Shown here: positions 59 to 62,700 of the stretch, one piece after another
Layout: every line of letters begins with the position of its first letter
Position numbering within the stretch: the first letter of the stretch is position 1
IMG/VR virus record: IMGVR_UViG_3300050509_000509
Location: 9,812 to 73,811 of that record
Direction: 5' to 3' (one strand)
Origin: a virus
Taxonomy: Duplodnaviria; Caudoviricetes
DNA: 64,000 nt
Made by a program: the position numbers and the translations under genes
The notes under the pieces: model-generated
Seen by the model: the letters and a program-made list of their open reading frames with translations, nothing else
The model's database searches: none
Told to the model about the DNA's origin: nothing

Positions 59-1069
59 ATGCCACGACAATCAGAAAGTATGACAGAAGCCAGAACAGCC
101 TTACAGAAAGAATTAGATAGATGTGAAAAGGAATTTGGGGTTGGCACAGTAATTAGCTCCTCTCAGAGAGGAGAGAGAGTAGAGGTAATATCGACAGGAT
201 CGTTGACACTTGACAAGGCGACGGGAATAGGAGGTCTACCAAGAGGTAAGGTGGTAGAGATTAAGGGTTGGGAATCGAGTGGGAAGAGTACATTAATGTT
301 ACAGACCATTGCAAATGCGCAACATATGGGATTAAAGTGCCTCCTTGTAGACGGTGAGGAAAGTTTTGACAAGAAATATGCGCAAAATCTTGGTATAGAT
401 ACAGATGCTTTAATGATAAGACAATTGGATGAACATGGTGGGGAGAGATGTTATGATATAGCCGAAAGGCTCATGAGGACCAGGGAACTTGGGGTAGTAA
501 TATTTGACTCACAGACCTCACTGCTACCGAAGAAGGTATTGACGAGTTCATCAGCTGAAAGTGCTATTGGATTGCATGCTCGTTTAATGAGTCAGACTGT
601 GCCAAAAATTGTGAATGCAGCAGCCTATGGCAATACACTGGTTGTATATATATCTCAGCTCAGAGAGAAGGTAGGATTTATATTCGGCAACCCAGAGACC
701 ACTAATGGTGGGCATGCACTGAAGTTCTATGCGCATATGCGTATTGATGTAAGCAAGAGCGTGATTAAGGATACGGAGACCAAAGAGGCCATGGCTAATA
801 AGACGATCTGTAAGGTAATCAAGAATAAACTTGCCCCTCCATTTGGTGAGGCGAGTTTTCGAATAAATTTTGGAACAGGAGTAGATACCAACTTTGAACT
901 TATGGATCTTGGAGAAGAGCTCGGTATATTGATGCGCTCTGGTTCATGGTTTAAATACAAGGATGAAAATATAGCTAACGGAGACAAAAATATGCACCAG
1001 TTATTAGAGGATAATCCTTTACTGGCAGCTGAGCTACATCAGATTATCAAAGAAAAACTCTTACAATGA
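59..1069 (+). CDS. recA: RecA recombinase
   Basis: ISTGSLTLD, GGLPRGKVVEI, Walker A GWESSGKST, QLREKVG..GNPETT.GG.ALKFYA, VIKNKLAPPF. ATG at 59 after an A-rich leader is preferred to the TTG at 23. Confidence 0.95.
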   Translation: MPRQSESMTEARTALQKELDRCEKEFGVGTVISSSQRGERVEVISTGSLTLDKATGIGGLPRGKVVEIKGWESSGKSTLMLQTIANAQHMGLKCLLVDGEESFDKKYAQNLGIDTDALMIRQLDEHGGERCYDIAERLMRTRELGVVIFDSQTSLLPKKVLTSSSAESAIGLHARLMSQTVPKIVNAAAYGNTLVVYISQLREKVGFIFGNPETTNGGHALKFYAHMRIDVSKSVIKDTETKEAMANKTICKVIKNKLAPPFGEASFRINFGTGVDTNFELMDLGEELGILMRSGSWFKYKDENIANGDKNMHQLLEDNPLLAAELHQIIKEKLLQ

Positions 1070-1299
1070 AAATCTTCGCTGTGGTCCTGAGCTGCCTTAT
1101 GCTCAAGCCTGTAAGTGAACCGAAGCATATCTGCTCTTGCAAGATACAAGTTCGGTACTACCTGGAAGGAGAGCTTCAGATAACTGGCTATATAAAAGAT
1201 TCGGCATACATGTCGACTGAACTCCCTATCGCCAGCACAAATAAGTGGACTGGCAGTATCACCATATATGACTCCGTGGCAATAATCATAAATCCATAA
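1066..1299 (+). CDS. Small hypothetical protein, hydrophobic N-terminus
   Basis: ATGA overlap with the recA stop; fills the operon. Confidence 0.55.
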   Translation: MKIFAVVLSCLMLKPVSEPKHICSCKIQVRYYLEGELQITGYIKDSAYMSTELPIASTNKWTGSITIYDSVAIIINP

Positions 1300-1300
1300 T

Positions 1301-1501
1301 ATGACAATTAAAGAGTTTGCCACCCAATGGGGCCTAGATGAAAGAACGTTGCTGTATCTCAGAGATACCCAGCGCCGACTCTCAGAGGAGTGGATAGATG
1401 GGTCGGAGTACGAAGAATACCTGATGATGTGCGGCCTGACTATGGGCTCTATTGTAAGTAAACTGTCTATCACAGATATAGATATACTTGAAAATACATG
1501 A
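1301..1501 (+). CDS. Hypothetical protein
   Basis: Tightly packed ORF; ATGA overlap with the next gene. Confidence 0.65.
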   Translation: MTIKEFATQWGLDERTLLYLRDTQRRLSEEWIDGSEYEEYLMMCGLTMGSIVSKLSITDIDILENT

Positions 1502-1854
1502 AGAAGTCACCACTCAAAAAATACAGTAAAAGACGGAAGGAAAGAAGAGGCAAAGCCAATCGGGAGGTGAATGCCATGAAGGAATTCTTTGCATCCTTCT
1601 GGGGCTCTCTGAGAAAGGAGCAGAGAAGATGCTATGAGACAGGGGATGCTATATATGACCCCCGTACCTTCAATTTCCATCATGTGCTACCTAAAGAGAT
1701 ATACCCTCAGTACCAATATTCCACGTGGAACATTGTACTTGTGGGGTGGACGATACATGACCAGATTCACAGAGATATAGACCGGTTGCCAAAAGTAAAG
1801 GCGCTTTACGAAGAGTTATTACTCAAACATCAAAACGGAGAATTAAAACCATGA
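1498..1854 (+). CDS. HNH-type (NinG-like) endonuclease
   Basis: Basic N-terminus; C..TG, FHHVLPK..YP, NIVLV...HDQIH. Confidence 0.7.
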   Translation: MKKSPLKKYSKRRKERRGKANREVNAMKEFFASFWGSLRKEQRRCYETGDAIYDPRTFNFHHVLPKEIYPQYQYSTWNIVLVGWTIHDQIHRDIDRLPKVKALYEELLLKHQNGELKP

Positions 1855-2045
1855 TGGGCGAAGATAAATTCAGCCGCTTGCAGACAGTGAGGAAAGTAGG
1901 AGGGGATTACACCTTTGAAGGTGTTGTTGTAGCAGTATTTACCAAGCTTTCGGGCAAGGTAAGATATGTAGTGGAGGATGACAGAGGAGTTCTACATATA
2001 TTTTCGGATAAGCAATTAGAAGCAACCGATGAACTAACCTCCTAA
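1851..2045 (+). CDS. Small SH3-like phage hypothetical protein
   Basis: VRKVGGDYTFEGVVVAVFTKLSGKVRYVVE all-beta pattern; ATGA overlap. Confidence 0.7.
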   Translation: MMGEDKFSRLQTVRKVGGDYTFEGVVVAVFTKLSGKVRYVVEDDRGVLHIFSDKQLEATDELTS

Positions 2046-2069
2046 TTATACATTTAAAAATCAAGAAGT

Positions 2070-2285
2070 ATGAACAAGTTCAGTTTATTTCAGTATGCAG
2101 TAATCCTGCATAAAAAAGAGACGAAGGATGGCAAGACAGAGTTTGTAGGAGCAGAGATGATTATTGAGCCCACTACCATGCTGGCGCGCAACGAGCGGGA
2201 TGCTATATTCAAGATCACCAGGATGATCCCTGAGGAGAAAGCGACCAATCCGGATGACATTGATATCATCATCCGAAATTTTTAA
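2070..2285 (+). CDS. Hypothetical protein, possibly extended to 2539 by a -1 frameshift
   Basis: A-rich leader and ATG; ends A_AAT_TTT_TAA. Confidence 0.75.
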   Translation: MNKFSLFQYAVILHKKETKDGKTEFVGAEMIIEPTTMLARNERDAIFKITRMIPEEKATNPDDIDIIIRNF

Positions 2286-2351
2286 TTGCCCCACCTGCTG
2301 GGGGCCTGAGAGGACAGCTCGCGCAAGCCGTGAAAAACACAAGTCAGCAGG
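2276..2351 (+). promoter_or_regulatory. Candidate programmed -1 ribosomal frameshift signal
   Basis: In-frame heptamer A_AAT_TTT (2276-2282), 5-nt spacer, CCCCA/TGGGG stem; CCTGCT complementary to AGCAGG at 2346-2351; -1 frame open to 2539. Confidence 0.55.
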
Positions 2352-2570
2352 ACTGGGAAAGGAAAGTGAGAGCCAAAACCAGAGGAGTAAATATGGATTG
2401 GATGGAAGAGGAAAAACAGAGAGTTGCTCCGCAGTTCATGACCTCATCTTTTAATGTAGTACATGATCATGATCAGGATCAGCTACTCCCCAGCTCCACT
2501 GTTTACACAATGAGTTCGGCGCTTGCATCTGGACAATAAGAAGCTCGTATGGTTCGTATTTTAGGTAGAA

Positions 2571-2600
2571 GGCCCCGCAGTGTGTAGCGGGGCCATTTTT
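2571..2600. terminator. Terminator at the convergence of early (+) and late (-) blocks
   Basis: GGCCCCGC-loop-GCGGGGCC 8-bp stem followed by ATTTTT on +. Confidence 0.75.
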
Positions 2601-2928
2601 ATTTGTCAAATAGCGTCTTTACCTTGCCTTCCACCTCCTTCATACCTGAAGCTACCTCACTGGCAATTACTTGGGAAGTGTTTGCTTCCAGGATTACTCC
2701 CTGTTCGATACCTCGTTTCATGAGATCCATAATTACAGTATATGCCTCATATGTCAGTTGGATGGAAGCACCTCCTTTCTCCATGACTGCCTGATTGAGT
2801 GCATGATAAAGAGATGCAAATTGCATACCTGTCATCTCGAAAACATCGGTTGGATCCCATTTGTAGGAACGTTCTGAACTGTAGGGATTGTTACTTCGCT
2901 GCTGTTGATTGAGTGTCACTCTGCCCAT
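2599..2928 (-). CDS. Hypothetical protein
   Basis: ATG preceded by the AAAACCAAG leader seen before other late genes. Confidence 0.75.
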   Translation of the reverse strand: MGRVTLNQQQRSNNPYSSERSYKWDPTDVFEMTGMQFASLYHALNQAVMEKGGASIQLTYEAYTVIMDLMKRGIEQGVILEANTSQVIASEVASGMKEVEGKVKTLFDK

Positions 2929-3220
2929 TTTCTTGGTTTTGAAAGTTTATGTTGAAGAAAATATTACGTCCTGCACGCATGCTTTTGGAGAACTCTACCT
3001 GGATACCCAGTAATGAATGTAACCTTTTTATCTCTTGTAATACGGGAGCCAGGAACTGGGGCGACGCAGGACATATCCTTACAGATATACCTTCAATCCT
3101 TTTAGTGACCTGACCTACTGAACCTTCATCTATAGAGGAGATGACACCTTCCAGATATCGAAAATATGTCTGCTCATTCTCAGAGAGAAGCGTAGGGAAT
3201 CCGACTTTGTAGAGTTCCAC
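2891..3220 (-). CDS. Hypothetical protein
   Basis: GTG start overlaps the upstream TAG stop (TAGTG). Confidence 0.7.
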   Translation of the reverse strand: MELYKVGFPTLLSENEQTYFRYLEGVISSIDEGSVGQVTKRIEGISVRICPASPQFLAPVLQEIKRLHSLLGIQVEFSKSMRAGRNIFFNINFQNQENGQSDTQSTAAK

Positions 3221-3621
3221 TACAGCAAAGTTAATAGATATTTCACCTTATACCCAAGTCCGCTCAAATCTGCTGCTTTATTAGATAAAGCCCACCATTT
3301 TGTCATCTCCCCATAGTCATACAGATCATCTGCAAATTTGCATAGTGCATTTAGCAGTTGATCATTGCTCATATCGGTACGGATAGCTATATTCTCGAAT
3401 TTTCCAATCCTTTTAGGGACGACATAACCCAGTATAAGCTCACTTATTTCATCTTTGAATGTTTCCAGACCTGTATACAACTCGTCCAGCGCTTTATGCT
3501 CAGCAAAACTCCTTGTCTGCAGATGGTTGAAGTGTGCCTGCGAATGGAAATAAAACAGCCTGGATATGACTTTGTCGGGGGTAAGCTCTCCACCATTAGG
3601 AGCGCTGGGAAGTATCGCCAT
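3220..3621 (-). CDS. Ferritin/Dps-like four-helix protein (DUF5856-like)
   Basis: HSQAHFNHLQTRSFAEHKALDELY..L..D...E...G and C-terminal KYLLTL. Confidence 0.75.
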   Translation of the reverse strand: MAILPSAPNGGELTPDKVISRLFYFHSQAHFNHLQTRSFAEHKALDELYTGLETFKDEISELILGYVVPKRIGKFENIAIRTDMSNDQLLNALCKFADDLYDYGEMTKWWALSNKAADLSGLGYKVKYLLTLL

Positions 3622-4305
3622 TTAAAATCGTATTAAGGTTCTACCAAATGTTATACCTACAAAAGGCTGGGGCTCAGCCTTAGTACCTACTCCATAACCT
3701 ACTGAAAGCGAAAGTGCATATTTCTTTGATATCTTCTTTGCAACCTTCACGTATTGTCTGTCAAGATCATCATAAAGTATACTTATAGAATCCAGCGACT
3801 TACGCATCTTGCTATTGAAACTGAGAGCTGTAGCAAGACGGTTTTCACCAACCTGGACTAACTGATCCTTTGCCTGAAGTAAGCTATCTGTAACCCGTTT
3901 CTGATAGGCTAAGCTAAACTTCAACCTTGTCACTATATCAGACAAGCTATCGCATTTGTCCAGAGCTTCAATATTATTCCCTGCCAATCGGGCTCTTATG
4001 ACTTCGGCAGCCAGTTCGGCTGACCGATCTATATAGACCTTTAGCCGGTTATCCACCTGATATTTCAAGACTTTTAGTGAATCTGCTTTCTTTACTATAA
4101 GGTAGGTTGTTTGTTTTAGTGAATCTTCTGTTTCTTTCCATCGCTGTTGAGCTGAATCTAATGCTTTTATTATTGCATCCTTCATGGGCTTCTCAGAGAG
4201 GGAAGAGGTCCGATTGCAACGAGTATCATCCAACAGCAACCATAGAACTATGATTATGGCTGTTGCAAGTATAAATAATTTCCCAATCCCCTCAAGTCTC
4301 TTCAT
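3622..4305 (-). CDS. Spanin-like membrane-anchored coiled-coil protein
   Basis: N-terminal TM helix, long coiled coil, C-terminal Gly/aromatic beta strands ending in Phe; follows a holin-like gene; start re-called at MKRLEG. Confidence 0.55.
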   Translation of the reverse strand: MKRLEGIGKLFILATAIIIVLWLLLDDTRCNRTSSLSEKPMKDAIIKALDSAQQRWKETEDSLKQTTYLIVKKADSLKVLKYQVDNRLKVYIDRSAELAAEVIRARLAGNNIEALDKCDSLSDIVTRLKFSLAYQKRVTDSLLQAKDQLVQVGENRLATALSFNSKMRKSLDSISILYDDLDRQYVKVAKKISKKYALSLSVGYGVGTKAEPQPFVGITFGRTLIRF

Positions 4306-4495
4306 CTTTTTTCTTTTTAAGACCGAACATCCTGTACAGGTTGTATGCCATTGTAGAGAGAGCAGCAAATATTGTAGCAATCGCTGCCCACTCAGTTAGT
4401 GAAAGGCGTGCAATTAAGTACAGAAATACAGTAAGTAAAGTCATATACAGACTTCCGTCGTTGTTGTGTTCTCCGTGCATGGCTTTATCCCTCAT
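4292..4495 (-). CDS. Putative holin
   Basis: 67 aa, two hydrophobic segments, charged C-terminus KKKKDEET. Confidence 0.55.
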   Translation of the reverse strand: MRDKAMHGEHNNDGSLYMTLLTVFLYLIARLSLTEWAAIATIFAALSTMAYNLYRMFGLKKKKDEET

Positions 4496-4513
4496 AACCT
4501 TTTAATTACGATA

Positions 4514-5092
4514 CTATGGTGTAGTTGTAGTTGTAGTTGTTGTACTGGTTGTTGTAGTTGTAGTTGTGGTGGTCGTAGTAGTGGTCGTAGTGGTCGTTGT
4601 TGTGGTAGTAGTGGTGGTGGTTGTGGTTGTTGTAGTAGTTGTAGGTCCTACAGTAGCTGTAACTGTATAGGTCTGGAAAGGCTCCGCAGTGAACGAACAG
4701 GTGATCGCAGCAGTCTGCGATGCATCTGTACATACCACATCTCCTGCCACATTCGTTACTGTGACAGTACGATAAGTGCTACCATCTGCTACAGTAGCTT
4801 CAATGAAGTTGCCCTGTGTCGCAGTAAATGTACCTGTCTCAGTAGTTGTACTGGTAACAACTGTTGTACCATTAACATCAATAGTCAGTGTACCATTCTG
4901 ACCACCCAATTCTGCAAAGGAGAAGTTGTTGATGTCAGGAGTGCAACATTCATTGGCATTAATTTCAAACCAATAGAATCCCCTTCCACCTTCCGGCTTT
5001 TTATAGCGAAGGATGAGAGTTCCAGGGACGACCTGCCCAAGTTTATCAACTTTGACAAAGGCTCTTAGCCTCGGGTCTCTTCTTGTAGACAT
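4514..5092 (-). CDS. Putative virion protein with beta-rich domain and ~40-residue poly-Thr tail
   Basis: Thr-rich beta domain, then GP(T)nS(T)nP-stop encoded with mixed ACN codons. Confidence 0.8.
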   Translation of the reverse strand: MSTRRDPRLRAFVKVDKLGQVVPGTLILRYKKPEGGRGFYWFEINANECCTPDINNFSFAELGGQNGTLTIDVNGTTVVTSTTTETGTFTATQGNFIEATVADGSTYRTVTVTNVAGDVVCTDASQTAAITCSFTAEPFQTYTVTATVGPTTTTTTTTTTTTTTTTTTTTTTTTTTTTTTTTSTTTTTTTTP

Positions 5093-5096
5093 ATAT

Positions 5097-6185
5097 TTAA
5101 TTTTGATTTTGTCCTCTTCGTCGTACTTCGATACCTATCTGCTCCATGGGAGCTTCGAAGATCTTGTACATATCAAGTCTTGCTTCTTGTATCTCACCCA
5201 CATAATTCTTCGAGCAATACTCATTTGAAACAAAACTCAAATCATCTTCAAAGGGTGTCTTCTCATTATTCACATAAGGCAAATCCCTCTTATGGAAGAG
5301 CATATGCCCTTCCTCTACTGGCCGGGTAGATGCTCCTGCATCATGATATATCTGTACTTTATCCCACTTCTCTATCTTATCTGTGGCCCAGCAAAAATCC
5401 ATTTCAGGTGGGCATTCTGTCTTCATACCCTTTTTCCACAGGTTGAACAGAATACTCCACATATCTGCACACCAGGATTGGAAACCTTTGTCCTCATTCT
5501 CAAAGAAACGCTTGTTTACGCTCCTCAAATTCAACCTGACTGTTATACAACCTTTGAATACATCCTGCCAAAATTGAGCATCTATGTTCTTCAGGAGATA
5601 CTGTGCACCACCAGACCCTTGCTCGTTCATAACAGCTGTTTCACGTGAAACACCGAACTCTTTGAGCAGGTCACCTAATACATCAATCTTTTTATAGGAA
5701 TCAAGCCTTTGAGGAAGAACGTCCTTAATCTTGCTATCGAAGTAGGAAGCAGCGATGTAGCTACGAGTATCACTCAGGTAACATGTATCGTCACCCAGAA
5801 GATTATCGAAGTTAGGCTTTTTGGTGAATATTACATCACTATCCATATATAGAATTGCATTCTCTCTCAGAGAGGACGCAGTTTCGAAGTATTTGGCAAG
5901 GAGCCATGGTCTGAGCAGAGGTATATAGCCTGTTTGCTGGATAAGACGTGGAAGCTCCCCGGTAGTATCTTCTATGAATACGAAATTTGCTTCTGGATAA
6001 TCTCCTATTAGCCCTCCCCATTCTTCAGCAAAGGTTCTTCCTCCTTCTCTATTGCTATGTTTCCAGATGAGTGCTGTATAGTTCTCTGAGAGACCATACT
6101 TACGGAGATTATGAAGCTGCACCCTGAGCTGCCATACGAAGTAAAGATCGTTGGGTTGAGCTGTAATGATCCTAAGTTGTCGCAT
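5097..6185 (-). CDS. GT-A fold glycosyltransferase resembling peptide O-glycosyltransferases (HPAT/SERGT-like)
   Basis: YIPLLRPWLL, DxD in LYMDSDVIF, GGAQYLL, WCADMWS, IYHDAG. Confidence 0.65.
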   Translation of the reverse strand: MRQLRIITAQPNDLYFVWQLRVQLHNLRKYGLSENYTALIWKHSNREGGRTFAEEWGGLIGDYPEANFVFIEDTTGELPRLIQQTGYIPLLRPWLLAKYFETASSLRENAILYMDSDVIFTKKPNFDNLLGDDTCYLSDTRSYIAASYFDSKIKDVLPQRLDSYKKIDVLGDLLKEFGVSRETAVMNEQGSGGAQYLLKNIDAQFWQDVFKGCITVRLNLRSVNKRFFENEDKGFQSWCADMWSILFNLWKKGMKTECPPEMDFCWATDKIEKWDKVQIYHDAGASTRPVEEGHMLFHKRDLPYVNNEKTPFEDDLSFVSNEYCSKNYVGEIQEARLDMYKIFEAPMEQIGIEVRRRGQNQN

Positions 6186-6888
6186 GCTCTTCCTCCCTTT
6201 TTAAGAACTCCTCTACCGATATAATATTCATTAACTCTGTCCTTCGATTATCGAAGTAATCCCAATCTTCCTGAGCACGCTCAAAGTTGACATGGGCCAT
6301 ATTGAGTTGAAATGCTTTACCTCCTGCCGCCGGACCAGGATTCTGAAGGGGTCTTATTACACCAACTCCCCAGTCTGTATCTATAGTATAATACTCAAAA
6401 GGTATAGCTGCTCCATACCGGAGTATAGCTTTGTAGCAATCTCCATTCCAGTTGCCACCCTGATCTCCTGTAGTAGTATGCTGGTAAGTGGGCGGATTCA
6501 TATCATGAAGCACTATAGTGCCATTCTCTGAGAGGTGCGCGAGGGCATTTTGAATATCCCGGTATACCTGACTTGCTTCATGAAGACCGTCAATAAATAC
6601 TATATCGTATTTCTGGATCTCGTTTATTCTCTCGAAATATTGGTCGGAAGTACATTTGAATATGGCCTCCGCCTTTGTAGGCTGATCAGGCTCCCTCCAG
6701 AAGGTATGTACTATAGAATCAGCTGGCATTCTTTCCTTCCGGATATCTTTGGAAGGATTAGGGTCTACTGCTACCTTATGAGCACAATCTACATTATCAA
6801 ATGACCAGCCTTTAAAATATCCTATTTCCAGGTATGATTTGTAATCATACTTTGTAATGAAGTGATTAATGATGTCCCATCTATTCAT
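6172..6888 (-). CDS. Class I SAM-dependent methyltransferase (Methyltransf_24-like)
   Basis: YLEIG, VAVDP, YDIVFIDGLH, GTIVLHD. Confidence 0.85.
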   Translation of the reverse strand: MNRWDIINHFITKYDYKSYLEIGYFKGWSFDNVDCAHKVAVDPNPSKDIRKERMPADSIVHTFWREPDQPTKAEAIFKCTSDQYFERINEIQKYDIVFIDGLHEASQVYRDIQNALAHLSENGTIVLHDMNPPTYQHTTTGDQGGNWNGDCYKAILRYGAAIPFEYYTIDTDWGVGVIRPLQNPGPAAGGKAFQLNMAHVNFERAQEDWDYFDNRRTELMNIISVEEFLKREEEHATT

Positions 6889-6923
6889 ATATGCTTGGTT
6901 TTTAGCGACTTGACGTAGAGCCC

Positions 6924-7415
6924 CTACTTTGCCCAGTCGTCTATAGTTACTTTGACGCGCCTGAGGGCTTCTCGGGATCTCCTTTTATAATCCATAGTCT
7001 GTTCATAAGGACATTTTTCCCATCCTCTAACCTTTGTTCTTGGTTTTGGAGGAGTAGTATGCTTCAGGAATTTTAATATTGTCTTCTCCAAGGCAGAGAT
7101 ATGTTTTCTGCTAAGTCTCAACAACGCAAATCCCGACCTTCTAACAAGATCTGATTTCTTTGCATCATTCTCTTTCTGTTGTTTGGTGCTGTGATATTTC
7201 GCCCCATCATATTCAATTACTACCCTTTTCCCCGGAACTATAAAATCAAAAACGTAATATCCTCCCTGTTCGTTTCTTCCCTCCCAGAAAGAGATTTCCT
7301 GCTTGAACTTTACTCTGTTCTTTTTCAGGATATTAGCTATCCTGTTTTCCATCGGAGATCTCTCACTATTCTCTAATCTCCATGTATTAACGAACCATCC
7401 CTTGGGCTTTTTCAT
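6924..7415 (-). CDS. DUF559/Vsr-like endonuclease
   Basis: E..IANIL, FKQE, YVFDF, VIEYDG.KYH, ND..K..L....GF.LLR. Confidence 0.85.
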   Translation of the reverse strand: MKKPKGWFVNTWRLENSERSPMENRIANILKKNRVKFKQEISFWEGRNEQGGYYVFDFIVPGKRVVIEYDGAKYHSTKQQKENDAKKSDLVRRSGFALLRLSRKHISALEKTILKFLKHTTPPKPRTKVRGWEKCPYEQTMDYKRRSREALRRVKVTIDDWAK

Positions 7416-7417
7416 AT

Positions 7418-7730
7418 AAAATTTCTGCTTTTGGGTAATGGAACATTTACATCCGGAGACAGAACTCGGATTCCTGTGGCCTTTTTACGTACTTTTGTCC
7501 ACAGAAGGCTTAAACAAACACTCCATACATCCGTTTTTAGATGGAGAACTGAAAATTCTTTTTCCGTTTAAGTCTCCGTCGGGGGTCATCATGTTCGAGA
7601 TGTTGCCCCCACTTTTTTTTCAGTTTTGTCACTACGAGCCAGCTTTTCACCCCTACTCATAGCTTAGTTTGATAAACCGATTACCTTTTTACCACACCAT
7701 AAGTACGCGATGTGATTAACCGGGAGGAAC
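7418..7730 (-). ncRNA. Candidate structured RNA leader upstream of the endonuclease
   Basis: At least six stems, several completed by G-U pairs on the minus strand; largest intergenic gap in the late block. Confidence 0.45.
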
Positions 7731-7732
7731 CA

Positions 7733-8404
7733 CTAAGAACCGGTAGTTTGTGAATGTGAATCCACAAATCTTTTTGTTGTTGAAAATTCATTGCTCGAAC
7801 GAGTCAGCACATATTCCTCTTCATCGCTGAGCGCATTATAGTCCAGATACCAGGGTATGTGCTTTGCAGTCATATTGCCGGCTATTCGGATTGATTCATA
7901 TTGAAAGGGGAGACCCACCTTTATTACACTAAAAGTGGTGTCTACCCCTGCTATATAAACGTCTGTCTCCAGGGATTTCTCCCAGTATCTTTTCTCCCAA
8001 TGCCTAGCATAGTTCGCATACTCACTGTCTGGTAAATCATCTATTCGGAGGGCCAGTCCTGCTTTATCGTATTTATATTTTTCGGCCAACTGAATCATTT
8101 TTTCAATAAAGGCTTCAGGTGTATTAGGGTTTAGTTCTATATCTGAGTCAGTATAGGCTATCCATGAACCCTGCTCGAAATTATTTATGTAGTCACTGTT
8201 GTATACAGCAAGCTGTCCCAGGTTTGAATCCAGGCATACCACCTCACAACCACATTCTTTATACCACTCTCTGAGAGGGGTATACGAAGAGTTGTTATCA
8301 ATAATGTGTAGGTTTACGTACCCCAGTCTCTGCAGGTCCATTAGTAACTTCCGGGTAGTTGTCAACCTGTTGAAGTTGTTGATGATTATTGGTATCTGGC
8401 TCAC
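7733..8404 (-). CDS. Glycosyltransferase family 2-like
   Basis: IPIIINNFNR, IIDNNSSY, DxD in YTDSDI. Confidence 0.8.
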   Translation of the reverse strand: MSQIPIIINNFNRLTTTRKLLMDLQRLGYVNLHIIDNNSSYTPLREWYKECGCEVVCLDSNLGQLAVYNSDYINNFEQGSWIAYTDSDIELNPNTPEAFIEKMIQLAEKYKYDKAGLALRIDDLPDSEYANYARHWEKRYWEKSLETDVYIAGVDTTFSVIKVGLPFQYESIRIAGNMTAKHIPWYLDYNALSDEEEYVLTRSSNEFSTTKRFVDSHSQTTGS

Positions 8405-8534
8405 TCAGACTTTTTTGAATCATTAGAAACATTTCATGTAAAAGGGCAGCATCTTCTGTCTTTGATATTAAACCCATCTTAATAGCTCCATCACAAAGTT
8501 GTTTGAGCGTGCTTATAGCTTGTTCATTTGTCAT
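8298..8534 (-). CDS. Small hypothetical protein
   Basis: ATGA overlap with upstream gene; 3' end overlaps the GT2 start. Confidence 0.5.
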   Translation of the reverse strand: MTNEQAISTLKQLCDGAIKMGLISKTEDAALLHEMFLMIQKSLSEPDTNNHQQLQQVDNYPEVTNGPAETGVRKPTHY

Positions 8535-9337
8535 ACAGCTTGTGCTACTAATTTATAATTCGTTCCACCTATATTAACTGTAATTGTTGAGTCAGCTGTT
8601 ACAGTTTCAGTGGCAACACTGGATGCCATCAGGATATCTTCCCTGTCTGCTATTCGTACAAAAGTCAAATTAGTTCCATCATATTCCAATCCACCTACTT
8701 CTGAAGGAGACATAAAAGTACCAGCGTCTATTTTTATAGGGGCTGTTCCAGGACTACCTGAGCTGCCTCCTATATGTATCCTGGCAGTAGGGGTAGTCTC
8801 AATGCCTAACCTACCGCCATTTATTACTACTTCAGCGTTGTTCACATCTACTATGAAATCAAATGTAAGATCCTTAGTGATGTGGAAAAATCCCTGCAAG
8901 TTGATTAGATTAACCTGTTCAGATGCATTACTGGTATTAAGCTGTATATAAGGAGCATTGGAGAGATTGTCACGCAAATTGATGAATGTGCTTGCATTAG
9001 TGTTCATATTTATAACCAATGTGTTATCCTCGTTGTGCAAACCAATCACTCCTGCTGATACATCAGTACTGAGTCCCGAATCTATAAAATTTACACTGAA
9101 CCCTCCAGTGGGAACCTCACGTACAGAAGTAAGAACTGCTGGGCTTCCTGCTTCACCCACGTCCTGACCCAGTACAGTTTCACCAGCTGTGCTAATAGAC
9201 AAGCCATCAGCTGCAGCTCCTCCCCCGCCAGAGGAAGACAGGAAACATAGATATTGATGAATAAACCGGAGCCTCCGGTTTAAATCGCGAATAGATAGAT
9301 TGATAATAGGCTCGTAATTGCAAATGTTACCACTCAT
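8531..9337 (-). CDS. Fibre/spike-like structural protein
   Basis: Short coiled coil, Gly linker, DGLS...VLGQ and GRLGIETTPTARIHIGG fibre-type repeats. Confidence 0.55.
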   Translation of the reverse strand: MSGNICNYEPIINLSIRDLNRRLRFIHQYLCFLSSSGGGGAAADGLSISTAGETVLGQDVGEAGSPAVLTSVREVPTGGFSVNFIDSGLSTDVSAGVIGLHNEDNTLVINMNTNASTFINLRDNLSNAPYIQLNTSNASEQVNLINLQGFFHITKDLTFDFIVDVNNAEVVINGGRLGIETTPTARIHIGGSSGSPGTAPIKIDAGTFMSPSEVGGLEYDGTNLTFVRIADREDILMASSVATETVTADSTITVNIGGTNYKLVAQAV

Positions 9338-10089: not shown

Positions 10090-10109
10090 TATCTTGGTTT
10101 TTATTGGAC

Positions 10110-10421: not shown

Positions 10422-10424
10422 ACC

Positions 10425-51991: not shown

Positions 51992-51993
51992 AT

Positions 51994-53042: not shown

Positions 53043-53053
53043 ACACTTGGTTT

Positions 53054-53626
53054 TTAGCACCACAGAGTCGGCGCAACACCCCTACACCTATCTCTGAGGA
53101 AGTTGTCAATCATAGTATTGGCAAGCTTGTATAGATTCATAGCCAATAGATTATTGCACTGGTTGGCTGCTGCTATAGCTGCCTGTATATAAAACCATAC
53201 CTCATCAAGCACTTTCATCTGTTCTGTCTTTACATCCTGATTGCATTGCACCAGGTCAGTCTTCAGGAAAGCACGTCCAAATTTCTGTTCCAGTTTAGTG
53301 GTGCGGATAAATGTTCTTTCTATATTGAAAGTGATTGGTGGAGCAATAGTTTGTTTGACCGTCCATATTCCATCTGGCAGATCAATTAACTGGCTTACCT
53401 CACTCACGCAGGTGATGTTGAGCGTGTTACTATTGAATACCGTCATAGCACCTGCTGTATATGCCACTGTTGCCTTCATGAAACTGGGCGGCGTTATCTC
53501 CAATGTAGGGTTAGTTACTGCAAAATTTGACGGATAAAATGAAGTATCCGCAATCCCTAATGTTAGGGTGTTGTGGGTATCTACCACTACAAAGTCTAAT
53601 ATAGGTGATGTCTCTGGATAAGCCAT
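53054..53626 (-). CDS. Putative tail hub/structural protein
   Basis: LGIADTSFYP, LEITPP, LPDGIW; synteny. Confidence 0.6.
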   Translation of the reverse strand: MAYPETSPILDFVVVDTHNTLTLGIADTSFYPSNFAVTNPTLEITPPSFMKATVAYTAGAMTVFNSNTLNITCVSEVSQLIDLPDGIWTVKQTIAPPITFNIERTFIRTTKLEQKFGRAFLKTDLVQCNQDVKTEQMKVLDEVWFYIQAAIAAANQCNNLLAMNLYKLANTMIDNFLRDRCRGVAPTLWC

Positions 53627-54156
53627 TACTGCTCGTTTGTTGATATTTGACCATCAGCCGAGATCCATATAGGCCGTATATTCGCTGGCTGAGCAATTTT
53701 CCATATAGGTCTGCGTACAGCTATTGCCCTATTCTTCATAATGCGAGTGATAGTCACTGCATCAGATTGGTTACCACCTATTACATGATAGGTCGTTGCA
53801 TCTTCAGCAACATATAATGCTACATGACCACCTTTCTCTCTTTTAAATACTACCACATCTCCGAGAGATGGTAAGGGGGATGGGTTACCAAATTTCTTCC
53901 AGCTAAGAGCCCATAATGGGTCAGTAGGAATCTCTTTGTCAGCCCATTTAGCTACAATAGCCATAAAAAGTCCACACCAAGGAACACTATCCGCCGAATA
54001 GATCTTCTGCAGACCCAGTTCCCTGGCCCAAGATAGGATCTCTTCGTTGTCGGCATTACCAGGTTGCTCCTTGGTGCCATATAGCGCGAGAGCTACATCC
54101 AGCATCTTAGGACCCGGTTCATCCATCAACCATTGATATTTCTGCGGTAGTATCAT
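53626..54156 (-). CDS. NlpC/P60-like peptidoglycan hydrolase (TIGR02594-like)
   Basis: GTKEQPG..N, PWCGLF, ALSW, GDVVVFKR..GGHV, GGNQSD. Confidence 0.85.
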   Translation of the reverse strand: MILPQKYQWLMDEPGPKMLDVALALYGTKEQPGNADNEEILSWARELGLQKIYSADSVPWCGLFMAIVAKWADKEIPTDPLWALSWKKFGNPSPLPSLGDVVVFKREKGGHVALYVAEDATTYHVIGGNQSDAVTITRIMKNRAIAVRRPIWKIAQPANIRPIWISADGQISTNEQ

Positions 54157-54167
54157 AGTCTTTTAGT

Positions 54168-54203
54168 AAAAAAGGCCAGGAGCGGAAACTCCTCCCCTGG
54201 CCT
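54168..54203 (-). terminator. Intrinsic terminator after the capsid gene block
   Basis: AGGCCAGG/CCTGGCCT stem followed by a T-run on the minus strand. Confidence 0.75.
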
Positions 54204-54231
54204 GAAACGGCATTATGATGAAAAACCCCTC

Positions 54232-55353
54232 TTACGGTATCAATGTAGTTGTACTGGTTGTCGAAGTAGATGTAGTCGATGTAGTGGTAGTAGTTGTTGG
54301 ATTAGTACCACTGAAATCTTCAACGTCTCCCAGATACACTTCCAGTAAGGTCTCAAAGTCTGTACCTGTACCTGTAGGGAATGCCAGGATGATTGTTTGA
54401 TCCTGAGGCACGCCCGGATTCCAGGTGTCCAGATACTCATCGTACGGATAGTACTTGATGTAGTATGTATCATAGTAGGTACCGGCTGTCACATAGCTTT
54501 GGAAAGCCTGGTTCCAGCTTTGGTACTTATAAAGCGATTTGAAATGACTTGTCTGGTAGCTGTAGAAATCCTTTTCCATCTGCGCGATTTCTGCCGAAGA
54601 TCCAGTACCAAAGTCTGATCGCTGAACTACAGTAGAAGTAGCAATGATATCACATGCATCATTCACAATGAAGTCCTGTGTAGTTACCGGACCATTGATC
54701 ACGAAAGCACGGAACCACAGCCTGTCATACTCCCAGGGGTAAGCTTCCAGATCGCAAGGATTGCCATATACTGTCAGCGGCTTCTCAGTAATGTACATGA
54801 CAGAGTTGTCACCTGTACCAAACCTGGAGAAGGTCAGGAACTGGGAGAGCATAGGATCTGCATTACCCTTAGCAGCAGCCTCATCTACGAAATTCTGTAA
54901 TGCTGTACCTGATACGTCCGTACAAGGATTTGCGCCACATTCGCAACAAGGAGTATCTATCACAAATGAACGGGTAAGACCATTGAAGAACCCAGTATCA
55001 ATGTAGCTCGAATGTAGAACAAACGAGAAGGTTACCTGCTGGCTACACTGCAGATTCCAACCACTTATAGACTGGATCTGAGTTGGTATGTTTGAAACAG
55101 CTGTGATTTTATACCACTCAATCACCTTGTTTGCAGCGATCTTGTCCGAAGTCTTGCTGCCCAGACCGGGAATAGTTTCAATTCTTCCCTCACGGATGTA
55201 GATGTACTTCGCAGCGGCAATATTACCTGCATTTGCTATAGTATAGTCAGGCAGGAATACTCCGATTTGTCCACCAGTAAGGTTCTGCGTAGAACCGCTG
55301 GATGCCAAGGTACCCGAAGTAGCAACAAAGAGTGACGTTAAAGAGTAATCCAT
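54232..55353 (-). CDS. Auxiliary capsid protein-like (crAss gene 73 position) with Thr tail
   Basis: Third gene after the major capsid gene; beta-rich; ends NPTTTTTTSTTSTSTTSTTTLIP. Confidence 0.65.
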   Translation of the reverse strand: MDYSLTSLFVATSGTLASSGSTQNLTGGQIGVFLPDYTIANAGNIAAAKYIYIREGRIETIPGLGSKTSDKIAANKVIEWYKITAVSNIPTQIQSISGWNLQCSQQVTFSFVLHSSYIDTGFFNGLTRSFVIDTPCCECGANPCTDVSGTALQNFVDEAAAKGNADPMLSQFLTFSRFGTGDNSVMYITEKPLTVYGNPCDLEAYPWEYDRLWFRAFVINGPVTTQDFIVNDACDIIATSTVVQRSDFGTGSSAEIAQMEKDFYSYQTSHFKSLYKYQSWNQAFQSYVTAGTYYDTYYIKYYPYDEYLDTWNPGVPQDQTIILAFPTGTGTDFETLLEVYLGDVEDFSGTNPTTTTTTSTTSTSTTSTTTLIP

Positions 55354-55369
55354 TTTCTATGATTTATTG

Positions 55370-56098
55370 TTATTCAGATGTCTTTATTCGTTGTTGGGTG
55401 AACTGCACTGCTGGTACATTCTCTGTATCCATTGCCAGTTCCTCAATAGTAAAATTGAGGAGTTCATCTTCCAGATATTCGTTCAGTTCACAATCAGCAT
55501 GAGCAGAAGCAGTACCATCGAAATTCACATATCCTGGATAATCTATCTTCTGCGGATACCTAATGTATGAAACATATATGGTGTTGGGAGTAAAGGTTCC
55601 GTCAGTATAGATACCCAGTCTCATCCCTGAGATGGTGCAGAAGGTTTCCTCGTACTCGAACGAAGGTTTGTAATTGGAGTTGTTAAGAAGTGTTACAACA
55701 TCAGCATGCTTTGCCAGATCGTTGTTTACATAGATGAGACGATTCTTACAATCGCCCTTATCTGCCACAACATAGCTGTCTACATAAAACATGTACTGAG
55801 GATCAAGATCTTCCAGATTACAGGTCCACATATGGAGCTTGTTATCATCCTCTATGAGAGGAAGGGGGTGTGCTCCAGGAACCTCTATCAGGATCTCGAC
55901 ATCCTCGTAACGTTTCTTAAAACTATCCAGTCCTAACCCCAATGTGTTGTTTGGACTGATCTTCGTTTTTACCAACTTTAGTTGGGCCTCGTTAAGGGCC
56001 AATATCTTATTCTCAAGCGGTATGATCTGATGATCGAGAGCCGCTACTTTATTGAGTTTTTGATCAATCTTGTACAGCAGGCTCTCTACAACTATCAT
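55370..56098 (-). CDS. Ring/structural protein (crAss gene 74-like)
   Basis: LNEAQ, KKRYED, YIRYP, CEL..YLEDE; synteny. Confidence 0.7.
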   Translation of the reverse strand: MIVVESLLYKIDQKLNKVAALDHQIIPLENKILALNEAQLKLVKTKISPNNTLGLGLDSFKKRYEDVEILIEVPGAHPLPLIEDDNKLHMWTCNLEDLDPQYMFYVDSYVVADKGDCKNRLIYVNNDLAKHADVVTLLNNSNYKPSFEYEETFCTISGMRLGIYTDGTFTPNTIYVSYIRYPQKIDYPGYVNFDGTASAHADCELNEYLEDELLNFTIEELAMDTENVPAVQFTQQRIKTSE

Positions 56099-57048
56099 AC
56101 TTCAGCTATCTTTTTGAGTTTTAATTTCCGCTCCAGATCCAGGAGATCTTCCTGATGCGCATCATCGAGCAAATGCTCTACCAGTTCTTCCTTATCTTTA
56201 AACAATTCCAGCTCTCCCTCATAAACTTTTCCACCTTGTTTGAGCCGGTAAATATGGTGTGTGAATGCCATCTCTACTACATCCTTAACATACAACACAT
56301 CATCTTTGAGATTTGCATACACTGAGAACACTTTGATGGGATCTTGCCCTTTGAAAGGTCCGCTATCTGCGGATTGCTTCTTCAGGAATGTATCTACCAT
56401 ATTGTAGACAACTTCCTCACGGGTATCCTCGGTGACAGGTAGCCCCAGTAATCGGGCAACTTTACGACGCTTCTCCAGCGACCAACTATCAAACTTAATG
56501 ATAGCATCATTGGAATTTTTCTTCTTACGATAGAGTATCTCATTTTCCACATCCTCATCATTGATGAAGTATTGAGTGTCGTGAGGATACTCACCCCGCT
56601 CGTAAGCCTGCAGACTGGAAGCTATTGTTGGGTGTGCCTTTAACCAGCAGTAGGTGATATATTGTAAAGGAACATCGAGATTGAATATATTATCTCCGTC
56701 GATCAGCTTTACAGGTTCCACCTTCTTATGTGAACCTTTGGACGTATAGTTGTAGTATGGTGACATTGGAGACAGATCAAGACCACTTTCATACTCCAGT
56801 TTCTTTCTAAGTTCTATGATCCTATTCCTCTCGATGTCCCTCATTTTAGTATCAGTGATTCTATCGAGGTATTTGGCATCTGGATCAAGTCCTGTCCTGT
56901 ACTTACCATTGAGCTCCCTATAAGGAAAGATCATCTTTACTGTACCAGGGATCCTACTCATTCCTTTCTCTCTCAGAGATTTCTCCATGGTCGGAAAGGC
57001 TGAACTAAAGTCCTTCGGTATCACGCTGATTTTACCGATTCTACCCAT
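56095..57048 (-). CDS. Conserved crAss-like protein (gene 75-like)
   Basis: Immediately after the major capsid gene; GKYRTGLD, HPTIA. Confidence 0.65.
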   Translation of the reverse strand: MGRIGKISVIPKDFSSAFPTMEKSLREKGMSRIPGTVKMIFPYRELNGKYRTGLDPDAKYLDRITDTKMRDIERNRIIELRKKLEYESGLDLSPMSPYYNYTSKGSHKKVEPVKLIDGDNIFNLDVPLQYITYCWLKAHPTIASSLQAYERGEYPHDTQYFINDEDVENEILYRKKKNSNDAIIKFDSWSLEKRRKVARLLGLPVTEDTREEVVYNMVDTFLKKQSADSGPFKGQDPIKVFSVYANLKDDVLYVKDVVEMAFTHHIYRLKQGGKVYEGELELFKDKEELVEHLLDDAHQEDLLDLERKLKLKKIAEV

Positions 57049-60043: not shown

Positions 60044-60129
60044 ATTTAGTTGTTTTTGATATGCGTAAAATTATAGTTCGTCAGTGTGTTACGCGAGTGT
60101 TAAGTATGATTTTTTTGCTCAGTATAGCG

Positions 60130-62700
60130 TTATGTTTTCTTTTTGGTCTTGACTTGCTGCCTTTTGAGAGCTCTATCGGCCTTTTTGTCGGCCATCTGGG
60201 CACGTAGCTTCTCTTTCTCAAGTTGGATCTTCCTAAGTTCAAGTGAGATATAATCCTGGTTCTCTCTCTGTTTCTGATCGAGCTGTTGGCGTTTCAATTC
60301 CAGTTCCCTATCAGCAGTAGCCTGATCTATACGTCTATCATCTATCTCAGAGAGAGTGGTAGAGTTGTCCGGAGTACGGTCAGCTCCTCTTGCTGCGGCA
60401 CGGATAAGCTCAACCTCTCTGTCATTCATACGATCAAGCTCTTTCTGCTGTGCTTCGAACTGGCGATCAATCTCCTGTTGTTGCATCTGTGCCTGTAGAT
60501 TAGCCTCAGCTATAGCCTGCTGATTTTGCATTTCCTGCTGTTGCATTTGCATCTGTTGCTGTTGCATTGCCTCCATCTTATCTCTGAGACTCTTGAAGAT
60601 CTGTCTCATCTGTCGTACAGAATTAGTGCTGTATAGTACAGAGATTTCATATGGTGTAGCACCATTCTGCAACATTGGTTGGGCAAGCTGACGGAATTCC
60701 TGGAACTCCTGTACATCCCTTGCGCGTGATGTAGCAAATACTTTGAGATCGCGCATGGAGATATCCTCTCCATTTACGCGTATGAAACCTTGTTCTCCTT
60801 CCGTATTTACATATGAGATAGTAGAATATGGTTTCTTGGTTTCTATATACTGCACTGCATCAAGCATTGCCTGATACAGATCATTCATGACATATTCGTG
60901 CTGTGCAAAATAGGGTTCTGTCTGAGCATAGCTCTGAGAGAGCGCTGCATTGGTGCCTGTTGCAGTTTGTGTGGCAGCCACCCCACCCGTGCGCTCGCGC
61001 GTAATACCTACAAGCTCCCATGCCTCTATCTTGAGTTGTTGAGCCAGTGTGTATCTGGATTGGATCTCACTGGTACGTGTAAGATCTACATTCTTAAACA
61101 TATTAAAGTTGGAAGGACTCTTGAGATTCTCTGGCGAATCATCAATCATAACAATACCACGTTTACGTGCTTCCAATTCCCAGATATCTAGCGCATCTTG
61201 TCCATCACCATCCTTTGGTGTTGGTACGTGCCGGATAGATCCTTGGTATACATTACCAATTTCCTTTTCCAGGAGTTGGTACAATTGATTAAGGCAGATG
61301 TTATACAATACCTGGTAAGGTTTCAACATATCCACCAGGCTCTTTGCTTCATTAACGTTCTTGATTTCATGCACCACACCTATTATAGGACAGTGATCGA
61401 GCAGCTCGTAGGGTTCTACCTTGTATACATCCGAACCAATTTTATATCCCTTGTACCACTGATTCACATAATTCCATTCGATAGATATTTCACCGGGTAC
61501 CTTACGATAATTCTCATCCACCATTGTACTGAACTCCTCACCACTCTCATCCACATATGTAAGTTGGCCCACTTTCTTTTTGCTCAGCCAATATGCCTGC
61601 ACAACAACATATTTATTCCCGAACGTGTTGACATTCGAAGACAGACCAAGCCAATTGCCCAAAGAATCCGTATTCTCTTTCAGTTGAGATTCGATGAATA
61701 ATCGTTGCTGAACTATATAAGGGGAGTAAGTATCATATTTGATCGAATCCCAACCACTGGTTGTAGGATTCTCGAAGTTGGACTCTCTCGGAGAGAAGAG
61801 CGAGAGCTCGCGCACACCTTTTCGCAGATGATCTATTTCATCTTTAGTCAGATCAAAGCGCTCAATGATCTCAGATAGTTCCATTACATGTACTGTACCT
61901 GCAGCGAACGCATCCTTATGAATATATTTTTTATCGGGAAGTGTAAGATACCATACGTTCTTTGGGTTCAGGTTCTCCACACCCAGACCAAGCTTGCTGT
62001 TATTTTCAAACACATGAGCGAATTCCCTGGAGCTTATCAACAGATCGCGCATGCAATCTTCAGATAACTCCTTCATGTTGAGTTCTACCTTCAAAGCTTC
62101 GATTACATGATTGCCCCACTTTTCAGCAGTAGAAGTGTAATCCGTAAGATATTCCTGAACCTGCTCCAGCGACATCTGTTGAAGTTGTTCCTCTTCCACC
62201 TCTTCTCCTGCCATCGCCAGTTTCGATCTTATTTGCTGCATAGCATTTTCCAGGATGTAATTCTGCATTACCTCTGTCATATACTGCAGTTGTTCATTCT
62301 TGGATTCCTCATCCATGGCTTTTATCCTTACCTGATCGGGTCGCTTGGACAACTCACCGACCATTGTATTAAGTGGAGGGTTGAGTATTGGATAATGTTT
62401 TACATGTGGAGGCAGTTCGACTTCCTTGAGAAGTGTCTCTGCGAAAGATTGCATATCAGATGGGGCCTCTTCTATATAAAAATCTCTGGGTCCTATGATG
62501 CCCTTCACCAGATTATAGTTACGCACAAACGTATCTTTGGCCTTTATGAATTGTGAATAAGCTACATTGGCAAAGTAGTCCATATTGGACTTGACCCAGT
62601 TCTTGCCACGCTTCTCCTTTTCAGTAACAAATTGATCCGGGTAGATATTCCACCTGGCCCAGTCCATATTCTGGTACTCCGAATGAATGATGATAGGCAT
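60130..62700 (-). CDS. Portal protein
   Basis: HYPIL.P.LNTMVGE.SKRP, SLVDMLKPYQVLYN, GITRERTG; Gln-rich C-terminal coiled coil; follows the terminase. Confidence 0.9.
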   Translation of the reverse strand: MPIIIHSEYQNMDWARWNIYPDQFVTEKEKRGKNWVKSNMDYFANVAYSQFIKAKDTFVRNYNLVKGIIGPRDFYIEEAPSDMQSFAETLLKEVELPPHVKHYPILNPPLNTMVGELSKRPDQVRIKAMDEESKNEQLQYMTEVMQNYILENAMQQIRSKLAMAGEEVEEEQLQQMSLEQVQEYLTDYTSTAEKWGNHVIEALKVELNMKELSEDCMRDLLISSREFAHVFENNSKLGLGVENLNPKNVWYLTLPDKKYIHKDAFAAGTVHVMELSEIIERFDLTKDEIDHLRKGVRELSLFSPRESNFENPTTSGWDSIKYDTYSPYIVQQRLFIESQLKENTDSLGNWLGLSSNVNTFGNKYVVVQAYWLSKKKVGQLTYVDESGEEFSTMVDENYRKVPGEISIEWNYVNQWYKGYKIGSDVYKVEPYELLDHCPIIGVVHEIKNVNEAKSLVDMLKPYQVLYNICLNQLYQLLEKEIGNVYQGSIRHVPTPKDGDGQDALDIWELEARKRGIVMIDDSPENLKSPSNFNMFKNVDLTRTSEIQSRYTLAQQLKIEAWELVGITRERTGGVAATQTATGTNAALSQSYAQTEPYFAQHEYVMNDLYQAMLDAVQYIETKKPYSTISYVNTEGEQGFIRVNGEDISMRDLKVFATSRARDVQEFQEFRQLAQPMLQNGATPYEISVLYSTNSVRQMRQIFKSLRDKMEAMQQQQMQMQQQEMQNQQAIAEANLQAQMQQQEIDRQFEAQQKELDRMNDREVELIRAAARGADRTPDNSTTLSEIDDRRIDQATADRELELKRQQLDQKQRENQDYISLELRKIQLEKEKLRAQMADKKADRALKRQQVKTKKKT

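Follow-up and report, generated by a model that had tools for sequence, protein, structure and literature searches.

An evenly spaced, lineage-specific palindrome in the coding sequence of a crAss-like phage genome

Why would a phage write the same 9-bp palindrome, over and over, into the coding sequence of unrelated genes? The question is raised by a 64,000-nt stretch of a tailed-virus record (Duplodnaviria; Caudoviricetes; IMG/VR record IMGVR_UViG_3300050509_000509), hereafter the window, in which a first-pass annotation had noted a strong excess of TCTCWGAGA, where W is A or T. The window comprises bases 9812–73811 of the whole 73,811-b record, which we call G000 and which has the layout of a crAss-like phage, encodes a terminase large subunit, a portal and a major head protein, and was estimated by CheckV to be 59% complete. 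All 34 copies that the annotation had listed between 161 and 60589 were found at exactly those positions, starting at 161, 1357, 1606, 3178, 4191, 5865, 6083, 6525, 8268, 9605, 12924, 16313, 19926, 21102, 23528, 24572, 27291, 29268, 30412, 31545, 34493, 35478, 37309, 38811, 40397, 42069, 43356, 45378, 47417, 50617, 56971, 58869, 60345 and 60581. Five more copies lie upstream of the window, bringing the record to 39, and the reversed word, used as a control, occurs once.

TCTCWGAGA is the most enriched 7–10-mer of the record, with an enrichment of about 12- to 25-fold. In 100 dinucleotide-preserving shuffles of the window the mean was 1.18 copies (sd 1.00, maximum 4) and none reached 34, while the Markov expectations for the record were 1.54 at order 3 and 7.25 at order 5, versus 39 observed. 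A maximal-order Markov model returned 38.5, but this value is circular and uninformative because the 8-mers from which it is computed are themselves made by the motif. Shuffling synonymous codons 200 times left 2.89 ± 1.24 copies (maximum 6) and permuting codons left 1.82 ± 0.90 (maximum 4), each versus 39. The excess also survived 100 codon-pair (dicodon)-preserving Euler shuffles, the test that the annotation had named as able to refute it, which gave 3.20 ± 1.59 copies (maximum 7) versus 38 in coding sequence. Formation of palindromes in general by template switching is unsupported, as only this half-site family is enriched.

The coding context shows what the word costs. In accordance with the annotation's claim that copies fall in different frames, 38 of the 39 lie in open reading frames (ORFs), in all three phases (9, 14 and 15 copies), where they write at least ten different peptides (SLR/SQR, xSEx and xLR[DE]); the one remaining copy is intergenic, and no preference for gene boundaries was seen. 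All 15 phase-2 copies carry A at the centre on the coding strand, since T would create a TGA stop, and copies in phases 0 and 1 carry either letter. Among the 60 positions at which the encoded peptide could synonymously accommodate the word, 38, or about two thirds, are occupied, and of the 22 left empty, 6 overlap occupied sites with a shift of 2 nt. The compatible peptides are themselves 1.8–2.5 times commoner per residue than in three relatives, and at sites that align without gaps to the closest complete relative (G001; 126 kb, syntenic, 50–75% protein identity) the residues differ in 27 of 29 cases, mostly as K to R and D to E. Since residues have been replaced at most sites, the word owes its spread to amino-acid replacement in addition to codon choice, a pressure that matters for how the evolution of these phage proteins is read. 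The three frames, the 38 occupied positions and the 27 replaced sites, together with the codon-pair shuffle and the under-dispersed spacing described below, bear out the view that the signal is one of DNA rather than of protein.

The word itself is somewhat broader than first described. Seven copies with G or C at the centre (TCTCSGAGA, starting at 15743, 17219, 23889, 35940, 42794, 53858 and 61786 and spanning 15743–61794) occur versus an order-3 expectation of 0.54, and the motif is therefore better written as TCTCNGAGA with a preference for W. That preference acts at the DNA level: where the centre falls on the synonymous third position of a serine codon, W is found in 14 of 14 sites versus a background of 0.644 (P = 0.002). 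The annotation had also reported many one-mismatch variants containing CTCWGAG; 61 such heptamers exist, but 39 of them are the full word. One-off deviants number 19 at the outermost positions versus 8–14 per inner position pair, and the count of 14 includes nine copies of a single word that probably overlap motif copies followed by GA.

Beyond the nine bases, about 4 nt on each side show a bias, towards pyrimidines 5′ of the word and towards purines 3′ of it. The longer palindromes of 13–17 bp that the annotation had picked out (157–173, 1354–1368 and 34489–34505) do exist, with perfect extensions of 4, 3 and 4 bp, but they are chance products, because flank complementarity at offsets 1–6 is what the column composition of such flanks predicts. 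A hairpin or cruciform signal, such as an N4-type hairpin promoter or a terminator, was rejected, as there is no stem covariation and only the one copy is intergenic. The two half-sites behave independently of each other, which is what a symmetric protein bound to duplex DNA would lead one to expect.

The copies are also evenly spread, as had been proposed, with about one TCTCWGAGA per 1.6–1.9 kb. The 39 copies are separated by gaps with a coefficient of variation (CV) of 0.634 (P = 0.0015 in 20,000 simulations and 0.0010 in 5,000). With the S-centred copies included (n = 46) the CV falls to 0.584, and none of 5,000 simulations was as even. One of these copies, at 53858, sits in the largest gap between W-centred copies (50617–56971), and including all of them shrinks the largest gap from 6354 to 3319.

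Is the word shared by related phages? A search with the portal protein returned 51 viral and 55 metagenome loci. G001 carries only 3 TCTCWGAGA in its 126 kb, and it has a palindrome of its own, CCCYNRGGG, distributed genome-wide with consensus YCCCYNRGGGR (CCCN3GGG, 155 versus 16 expected). Merged into 179 sites that lie on average 705 b apart, this lattice has a gap CV of 0.647, and 0 of 5,000 simulations were as even; regular spacing is thereby reproduced independently, with another word. A 4.9-kb contig whose portal is 69% identical (L076) carries TCCNGGA 18 times versus 1.86 expected. Among more distant relatives, G003 has CTCTAGAG in modest excess (18 counted over both strands, equal to 9 sites, with an order-3 expectation of 1.5), and no enriched palindrome of this kind was found in G002. 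At least three alternative motifs occur among relatives with 68–75% portal identity, and those of the close clade have a common build: a pyrimidine run, a free centre and a purine run. The iterated TCTCWGAGA belongs to this lineage alone; its sister lineages have palindromes of the same design but different sequence. A further candidate variant, TCTTNAAGA in G004 and G005, was not enriched (8 versus 5 for the control and 6 versus 3, in whole records).

We additionally found 80 further loci with the HU/IHF-like protein discussed below and scanned the 67 of at least 9 kb for palindromes. Several lineages have weaker private palindromes at 4–6 times expectation (TAGN2CTA, CTGN3CAG, CAGN3CTG and CCTN2AGG), and lineage-specific iterated palindromes may therefore be widespread in the crAss-like group. 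The contigs with these weaker palindromes are L134/L135/L141, L176/L183, L133/L197 and L185/L190/L204/L208 (crAss-like). A lattice of this kind was not found described for crAss-like phages in the literature that we searched.

Whether individual sites are maintained could be measured on the sister motif, using three contigs about 77% nucleotide-identical to G001. Its CCCN3GGG sites were kept at 13 of 22 positions in L149 (background for a gapped 6-base word 0.209; all-GC control words 7 of 42), at 8 of 16 in L146 (background 0.192; all-GC controls 0.056 of 18 words) and at 3 of 4 in L075 (background 0.191; all-GC controls 0 of 17). The half-sites are preserved in this lineage and the centre base drifts. 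Between G000 and G001, 3 of 35 site positions coincide within 3 nt versus 0.33 expected (P = 0.004), a weak sharing because the other 32 are unshared and both motifs can use similar peptides. Sites that are kept at 77% identity and seldom coincide across the G000–G001 split are therefore long-lived but turning over, with the word itself being replaced.

We consider the leading explanation, held tentatively, to be that the phage encodes a symmetric protein that binds or processes DNA, that the palindromes form the lattice of sites which it recognizes, and that its specificity has drifted from one lineage to the next. Such a reader would be two-fold symmetric, each half reading one TCTC/GAGA half-site, would tolerate any centre base with a preference for A or T, and would have changed its specificity mostly by C-to-T and G-to-A exchanges, in either direction, within the half-site. 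The sites would serve a process that needs one within about 1–3 kb of every point of the genome, most likely the bending or condensation of a genome of more than 100 kb for packaging, or the handling of replication or recombination intermediates. We favor a phage rather than a host reader because the genomes sampled from the phylum of the possible host reach at most about 19 sites per Mb versus 528 per Mb here. The annotation's proposal of a binding site for a dimeric protein keeps its core, in that a symmetric reader fits a palindromic, coding-costly and regularly spaced DNA-level signal; the part that named the reader fares less well, as the link to the HU/IHF-like protein is only circumstantial.

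That protein, of 160 amino acids (aa; 46571–47053, minus strand), is encoded where crAss-like phages have their 'IHF' gene, immediately upstream of a homologue of crAss ring protein 1 (45639–46571, minus strand; PF24228 CrAss_Ring_1, 46.1 bits) that anchors the synteny with the crAss001 tail module. The crAss001 gene order used here is taken from part of the structural atlas of that phage (PMC10172136), in whose main text a word search found no mention of IHF, gp41 or gp42. The sole PHROG match of the 160-aa protein is phrog_12177, whose annotation gives no function, and there were no Pfam matches at E ≤ 0.01. Its best PDB profile match is the HU protein 5eka_A over the beta-arm region (E = 0.15), and an Atlas lead to PF00216 (Bac_DNA_binding) scores 0.87 on 27% of one cluster, both below significance; prediction of a two-copy complex scored 0.02. 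The protein is the most diverged of the late block, with 39% identity between G000 and G001 versus 68–73% for its neighbors, and the G001 protein shares 44–48% identity with its counterparts in the more distant G003 and G002 (neighbors 47–49%); the G000 allele therefore lies on a long branch. The long branch coincides with the new motif, a single coincidence and circumstantial as evidence. Closer proteins of the G000 type exist at 88, 74 and 71% identity (P0002–P0004). It is our first candidate for the reader of the lattice, though in our judgment a rather doubtful one. Nothing points to the cargo proteins, which had also been put forward as readers.

Several observations weigh against a lattice read by a phage protein. 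The AlphaFold2 model of the 160-aa protein is poor (predicted local distance difference test, pLDDT, 49.7), and its HU/IHF assignment stays below significance. In G001, which has the densest lattice, the corresponding protein is no more diverged from those of the lattice-poor G002 and G003 than its neighbors are, and the 'IHF' gene is described, in the portion of PMC10136315 drawn on here, as conserved across crAss-like phages. No helix-turn-helix, ParB or other sequence-specific binder was recognized among the roughly 40 G000 proteins scanned, and the reader may be encoded in the missing ~50 kb of the record. Strong lattices occur in few lineages only, and their densities differ (1 per 1.6 kb, 0.7 kb and 0.27 kb), being higher where the motif is shorter, a pattern that looks like a balance of pressure against cost rather than one required spacing. 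The positions themselves are mostly not common to G000 and G001 (32 of 35), the evenness of the G000 sites measured against random 38-subsets of the 60 motif-compatible positions reaches only P = 0.04, and unoccupied compatible positions are no closer to occupied sites than random positions are.

Among known systems, the closest in form, as the annotation had suggested, is HIP1 (highly iterated palindrome 1, GCGATCGC) of cyanobacteria. The sections of Elhai (2015, PMC4390886) on which we rely report that in some lineages one iterated palindrome has taken the place of another, that the sites saturate at close to one per kb and that one-nucleotide deviants are concentrated at outer positions; they present its function as debated between selection and a repair ratchet, Elhai proposing a methylation-based mechanism. 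TCTCWGAGA likewise is a short palindrome found inside and outside genes, grossly over-represented genome-wide (roughly one copy per kb), with other palindromes standing in its place in some lineages and with its one-nucleotide deviants biased to the outermost positions. Unlike HIP1, it belongs to a phage rather than a cellular genome, has an odd length with a free centre base and half-sites that are a pyrimidine run and a purine run, lacks a recognized cognate DNA methyltransferase in five related phage records, and reaches no such density in 301 sampled bacterial genomes.

This likeness brings in the alternative that survives best, namely that the word is a by-product of sequence-directed repair, nicking or methylation and has no function of its own. 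Biased mismatch repair or gene conversion would favor the strand that carries the word, and the process would saturate once all points of the genome lie within repair range, the form that Elhai put forward for HIP1 and the alternate HIPs. Motif turnover, regular spacing and the excess of outer-position deviants (19 versus 8–14) are all seen, as in Elhai's account, and a drive of this kind would explain both the fixation of many amino-acid changes and the scaling of density with motif length. G000 alone carries, beside a gene of methyltransferase fold, a gene for a Vsr-like nuclease, and it encodes a UvsX-like recombinase, a PD-(D/E)xK exonuclease and a weak RusA-like match; with recombination genes present, heteroduplex DNA should be frequent. 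Against this, the classical DNA methyltransferase families PF01555, PF00145 and PF02086 were recognized in 0 of the five related records, the complete G001 included and G000 being 59% complete. The Vsr-like nuclease is not in G001, which has the densest lattice, and a host-driven form of the process meets the finding that 0 of 301 sampled genomes carry the word densely, the host itself not being identified. A drive of the Vsr type, from T:G to C:G, cannot create the T and A positions of the word, and the inner one-off neighbors, at 8–14 per position pair in observed counts, include none that is conspicuously missing. We regard such a ratchet as possible but on balance doubtful.

The nuclease in question is a 163-aa DUF559 protein of the Vsr-like PD-(D/E)xK type (6924–7415, minus strand; PF04480, 35 bits versus a cut-off of 20.6), present in one of the five related records; a word-based protein search with it matched only itself. 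Its gene is inserted between one encoding a Methyltransf_24-fold protein and one with a weak glycosyltransferase-2-like match. From its sequence it is a candidate for the repair or the nicking interpretation, or may simply be a selfish endonuclease. The adjoining 238-aa Methyltransf_24-fold protein (6172–6888, minus strand; PF13578, 49.7 bits) has weak PHROG matches labelled 'DNA methyltransferase' and a G001 orthologue at 50% identity, and by its predicted fold falls outside the recognized DNA methyltransferase families. In E. coli, Dcm and Vsr act on CCWGG, an odd, W-centred palindrome, and the resulting repair bias raises the frequency of the word by a small amount. TCTCWGAGA is likewise W-centred and odd, and G000 carries the gene of Vsr fold. 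Unlike in the Dcm/Vsr case, the enrichment in G000 is about 25-fold, a C5 methyltransferase was not found in the five related records, and the DUF559 protein is at most a putative mismatch endonuclease.

A second alternative, which we hold to be unlikely, makes the palindromes the targets of a site-specific nickase, resolvase, primase or terminase-linked nuclease, whose regularly placed nicks, primers or cleavage points would serve recombination-dependent replication or the resolution of branched DNA before packaging. Okazaki fragments and repair tracts have a size range that includes the 0.3–2 kb spacing. A palindrome gives the same signal on both strands, and each strand passes from a pyrimidine tract into a purine tract; recombination genes are present, as are lineage-specific nucleases (DUF559 and HNH in G000, GIY-YIG/NUMOD3 in G001). 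Nicking both strands of a palindrome would, however, make double-strand breaks, and the primase and resolvase recognition sequences known to us are 2–5 nt long, not 9. The nucleases are not common to the lattice-bearing lineages, and judged by family, the DUF559 and GIY-YIG/NUMOD3 enzymes look like ordinary selfish endonucleases of the homing kind.

Another possibility, to which we likewise give little credence, is that the palindromes form a re-codable 'genome barcode', in which each lineage's palindrome, repeated every 0.3–2 kb, is read by a co-evolving phage protein to tell self from non-self. The phage would recognize its own DNA for selective packaging or condensation, or for protection from a phage or host nuclease. 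Were this so, the lattice would play the part of Chi or uptake sequences in a palindromic, lineage-private form, and a change of barcode would isolate lineages.

We think it very improbable that the word is derived from the host, with the phage mimicking or exploiting a host word of the Chi, uptake-sequence, nucleoid-protein or restriction-modification kind. The motifs do resemble Type IIP recognition sites (TCCNGGA and CAGNNNCTG are what we take to be known restriction sites), they differ from one lineage to another, and these lineages may infect different hosts, and G000 shows a classical response to host restriction in lacking ATCGAT (0 versus 15.5 expected) and CTCGAG (0 versus 7.3). Restriction sites, however, are expected to be avoided and not enriched, and Chi and uptake sequences are asymmetric and oriented, where TCTCWGAGA is palindromic. 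A contig of a relative with 73% major head protein identity is binned in a Cytophagales metagenome-assembled genome (MAG), a weak hint of a Bacteroidota host. This MAG has 69 TCTCWGAGA in 5.6 Mb, and among 301 sampled genomes of its phylum, the host itself not being identified, no comparable density was found, the maximum of about 19 sites per Mb comparing with 528 per Mb in G000. An origin in codon usage, codon pairs, a repeated peptide or an assembly artefact can be given practically no weight, since apart from the circular maximal-order expectation that equals the observed count, coding- and composition-aware nulls give 1.2–3.4 copies versus 38–39, the copies span three frames and at least ten different peptides, and contigs of three runs carry the same sequence (two may be its source and are not independent).

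The other analogies drawn for the word are more distant. The comparison with Chi fails, as TCTCWGAGA is palindromic, shows no orientation bias and is not enriched in the 301 sampled genomes; its symmetry and the lack of enrichment in those genomes also set it apart from FtsK orienting polar sequences (KOPS) and uptake sequences. The comparison with parS fails as well, since there are 39–46 dispersed sites and not a few clustered beside parB, and no ParB-like match was found among the G000 proteins scanned, a scan that excludes the missing ~50 kb. A phage precedent is described in part of Cresawn et al. (2015, PMC4351075) for Cluster O mycobacteriophages, whose 17-bp dyad repeats (TGTTCGGNNNCCGAACA) have 7-bp half-sites and a 3-bp spacer and, in Corndog, lie between genes at 14 of 34 sites and near gene 5′ ends at 10 more. 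G000 resembles these in having more than 30 copies of one palindrome in a phage genome of about 70 kb (39 in 73.8 kb), with invariant half-sites and a variable centre. Unlike the Cluster O repeats, its motif has a 4+1+4 architecture, lies in ORFs at 38 of 39 copies with no gene-boundary preference, and changes between sister lineages.

Few known phages rival the crAss-like group in abundance, and a DNA signal spread over their genomes would therefore bear on how they package, replicate or recognize themselves. To our knowledge, HIP1, the Cluster O repeats and other palindromes of this iterated kind have gone unexplained for decades. The present lattice is a tractable system for the problem, with a single 9-bp word, a sister genome that carries a different word of the same build, conservation that can be measured at 77% identity and a short list of candidates.

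The remaining observations concern the phage and its relatives. G000 has a coding fraction of 0.956, the GC content of 4-kb windows along the stretch varies between 0.412 and 0.442, and the minus strand carries a run of giant ORFs of 885–4150 aa. The same sequence is present in contigs assembled from three rhizosphere metagenome runs, which are not independent since two may be its source. These contigs show no differences from the window except for one short diverged contig at 12071–12477, and zero variation at motif sites. This second contig, about 85% identical over some 400 b and found in two runs, points, as far as its sequence tells, either to a related strain that co-occurs or to a diverged allele of the gene for a 599-aa protein. 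A megablast of window positions 1–20000 against deposited phages gave zero matches.

A second group of enriched words in G000, of GTAGTT type, was considered as part of the palindrome signal and rejected, as these are coding repeats for poly-threonine. They form 6-, 9- and 21-nt repeat arrays (4520–4644, 48391–48478, 52000–52065 and 52421–52607) that, read on the coding minus strand as ACT, ACA and ACC, give poly-threonine linkers in several late proteins. A 133-aa DUF5856/phrog_858 protein (3220–3621, minus strand), labelled 'starvation-inducible transcriptional regulator' (Dps-like) and kept in G001 (66%), G003 and G002, may bind DNA non-specifically. Upstream of the window, where the PD-(D/E)xK exonuclease is also encoded, lies a gene for a ThiF-family (E1-like) protein (66.8 bits), flanked by three proteins whose annotations give no function; this gene group (G000:C1:3650-6734, L131) is common to G000 and G001, is not in G002 or G003, and includes the weak RusA-like match (L131:6279-6734).

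In G001, genes without a counterpart in the G000 fragment encode a dATP/dGTP diphosphohydrolase N-terminal domain (PF18909, 97 bits; L057:6833-7396), of a family presumably linked to base-replacement pathways, an Acb2/Tad1-like hairpin-domain protein (L057:4825-5220), a cREC_REC protein (L057:9363-9773) and the GIY-YIG/NUMOD3 protein (L061:18367-19131). Its 40–72 kb region (L058, L059) holds a metabolic module with a NAMPT-like nicotinamide phosphoribosyltransferase, a PRPP-synthetase-like protein, NADAR, an NAD-dependent epimerase/dehydratase, a weak GT2 match and two VWA proteins; no DNA polymerase was recognized by Pfam among the 20 ORFs scanned there (177–668 aa). Beyond the two hexamers given above, G000 also lacks GGCGCC (0 versus 4.9 expected) and GACGTC (0 versus 4.6), and ATCGAT is absent from G001 as well (0 versus 11.9). 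In G002 and G003 the expected counts of CCGG-containing hexamers are 0.0, which suggests that CCGG is rare or absent in both.

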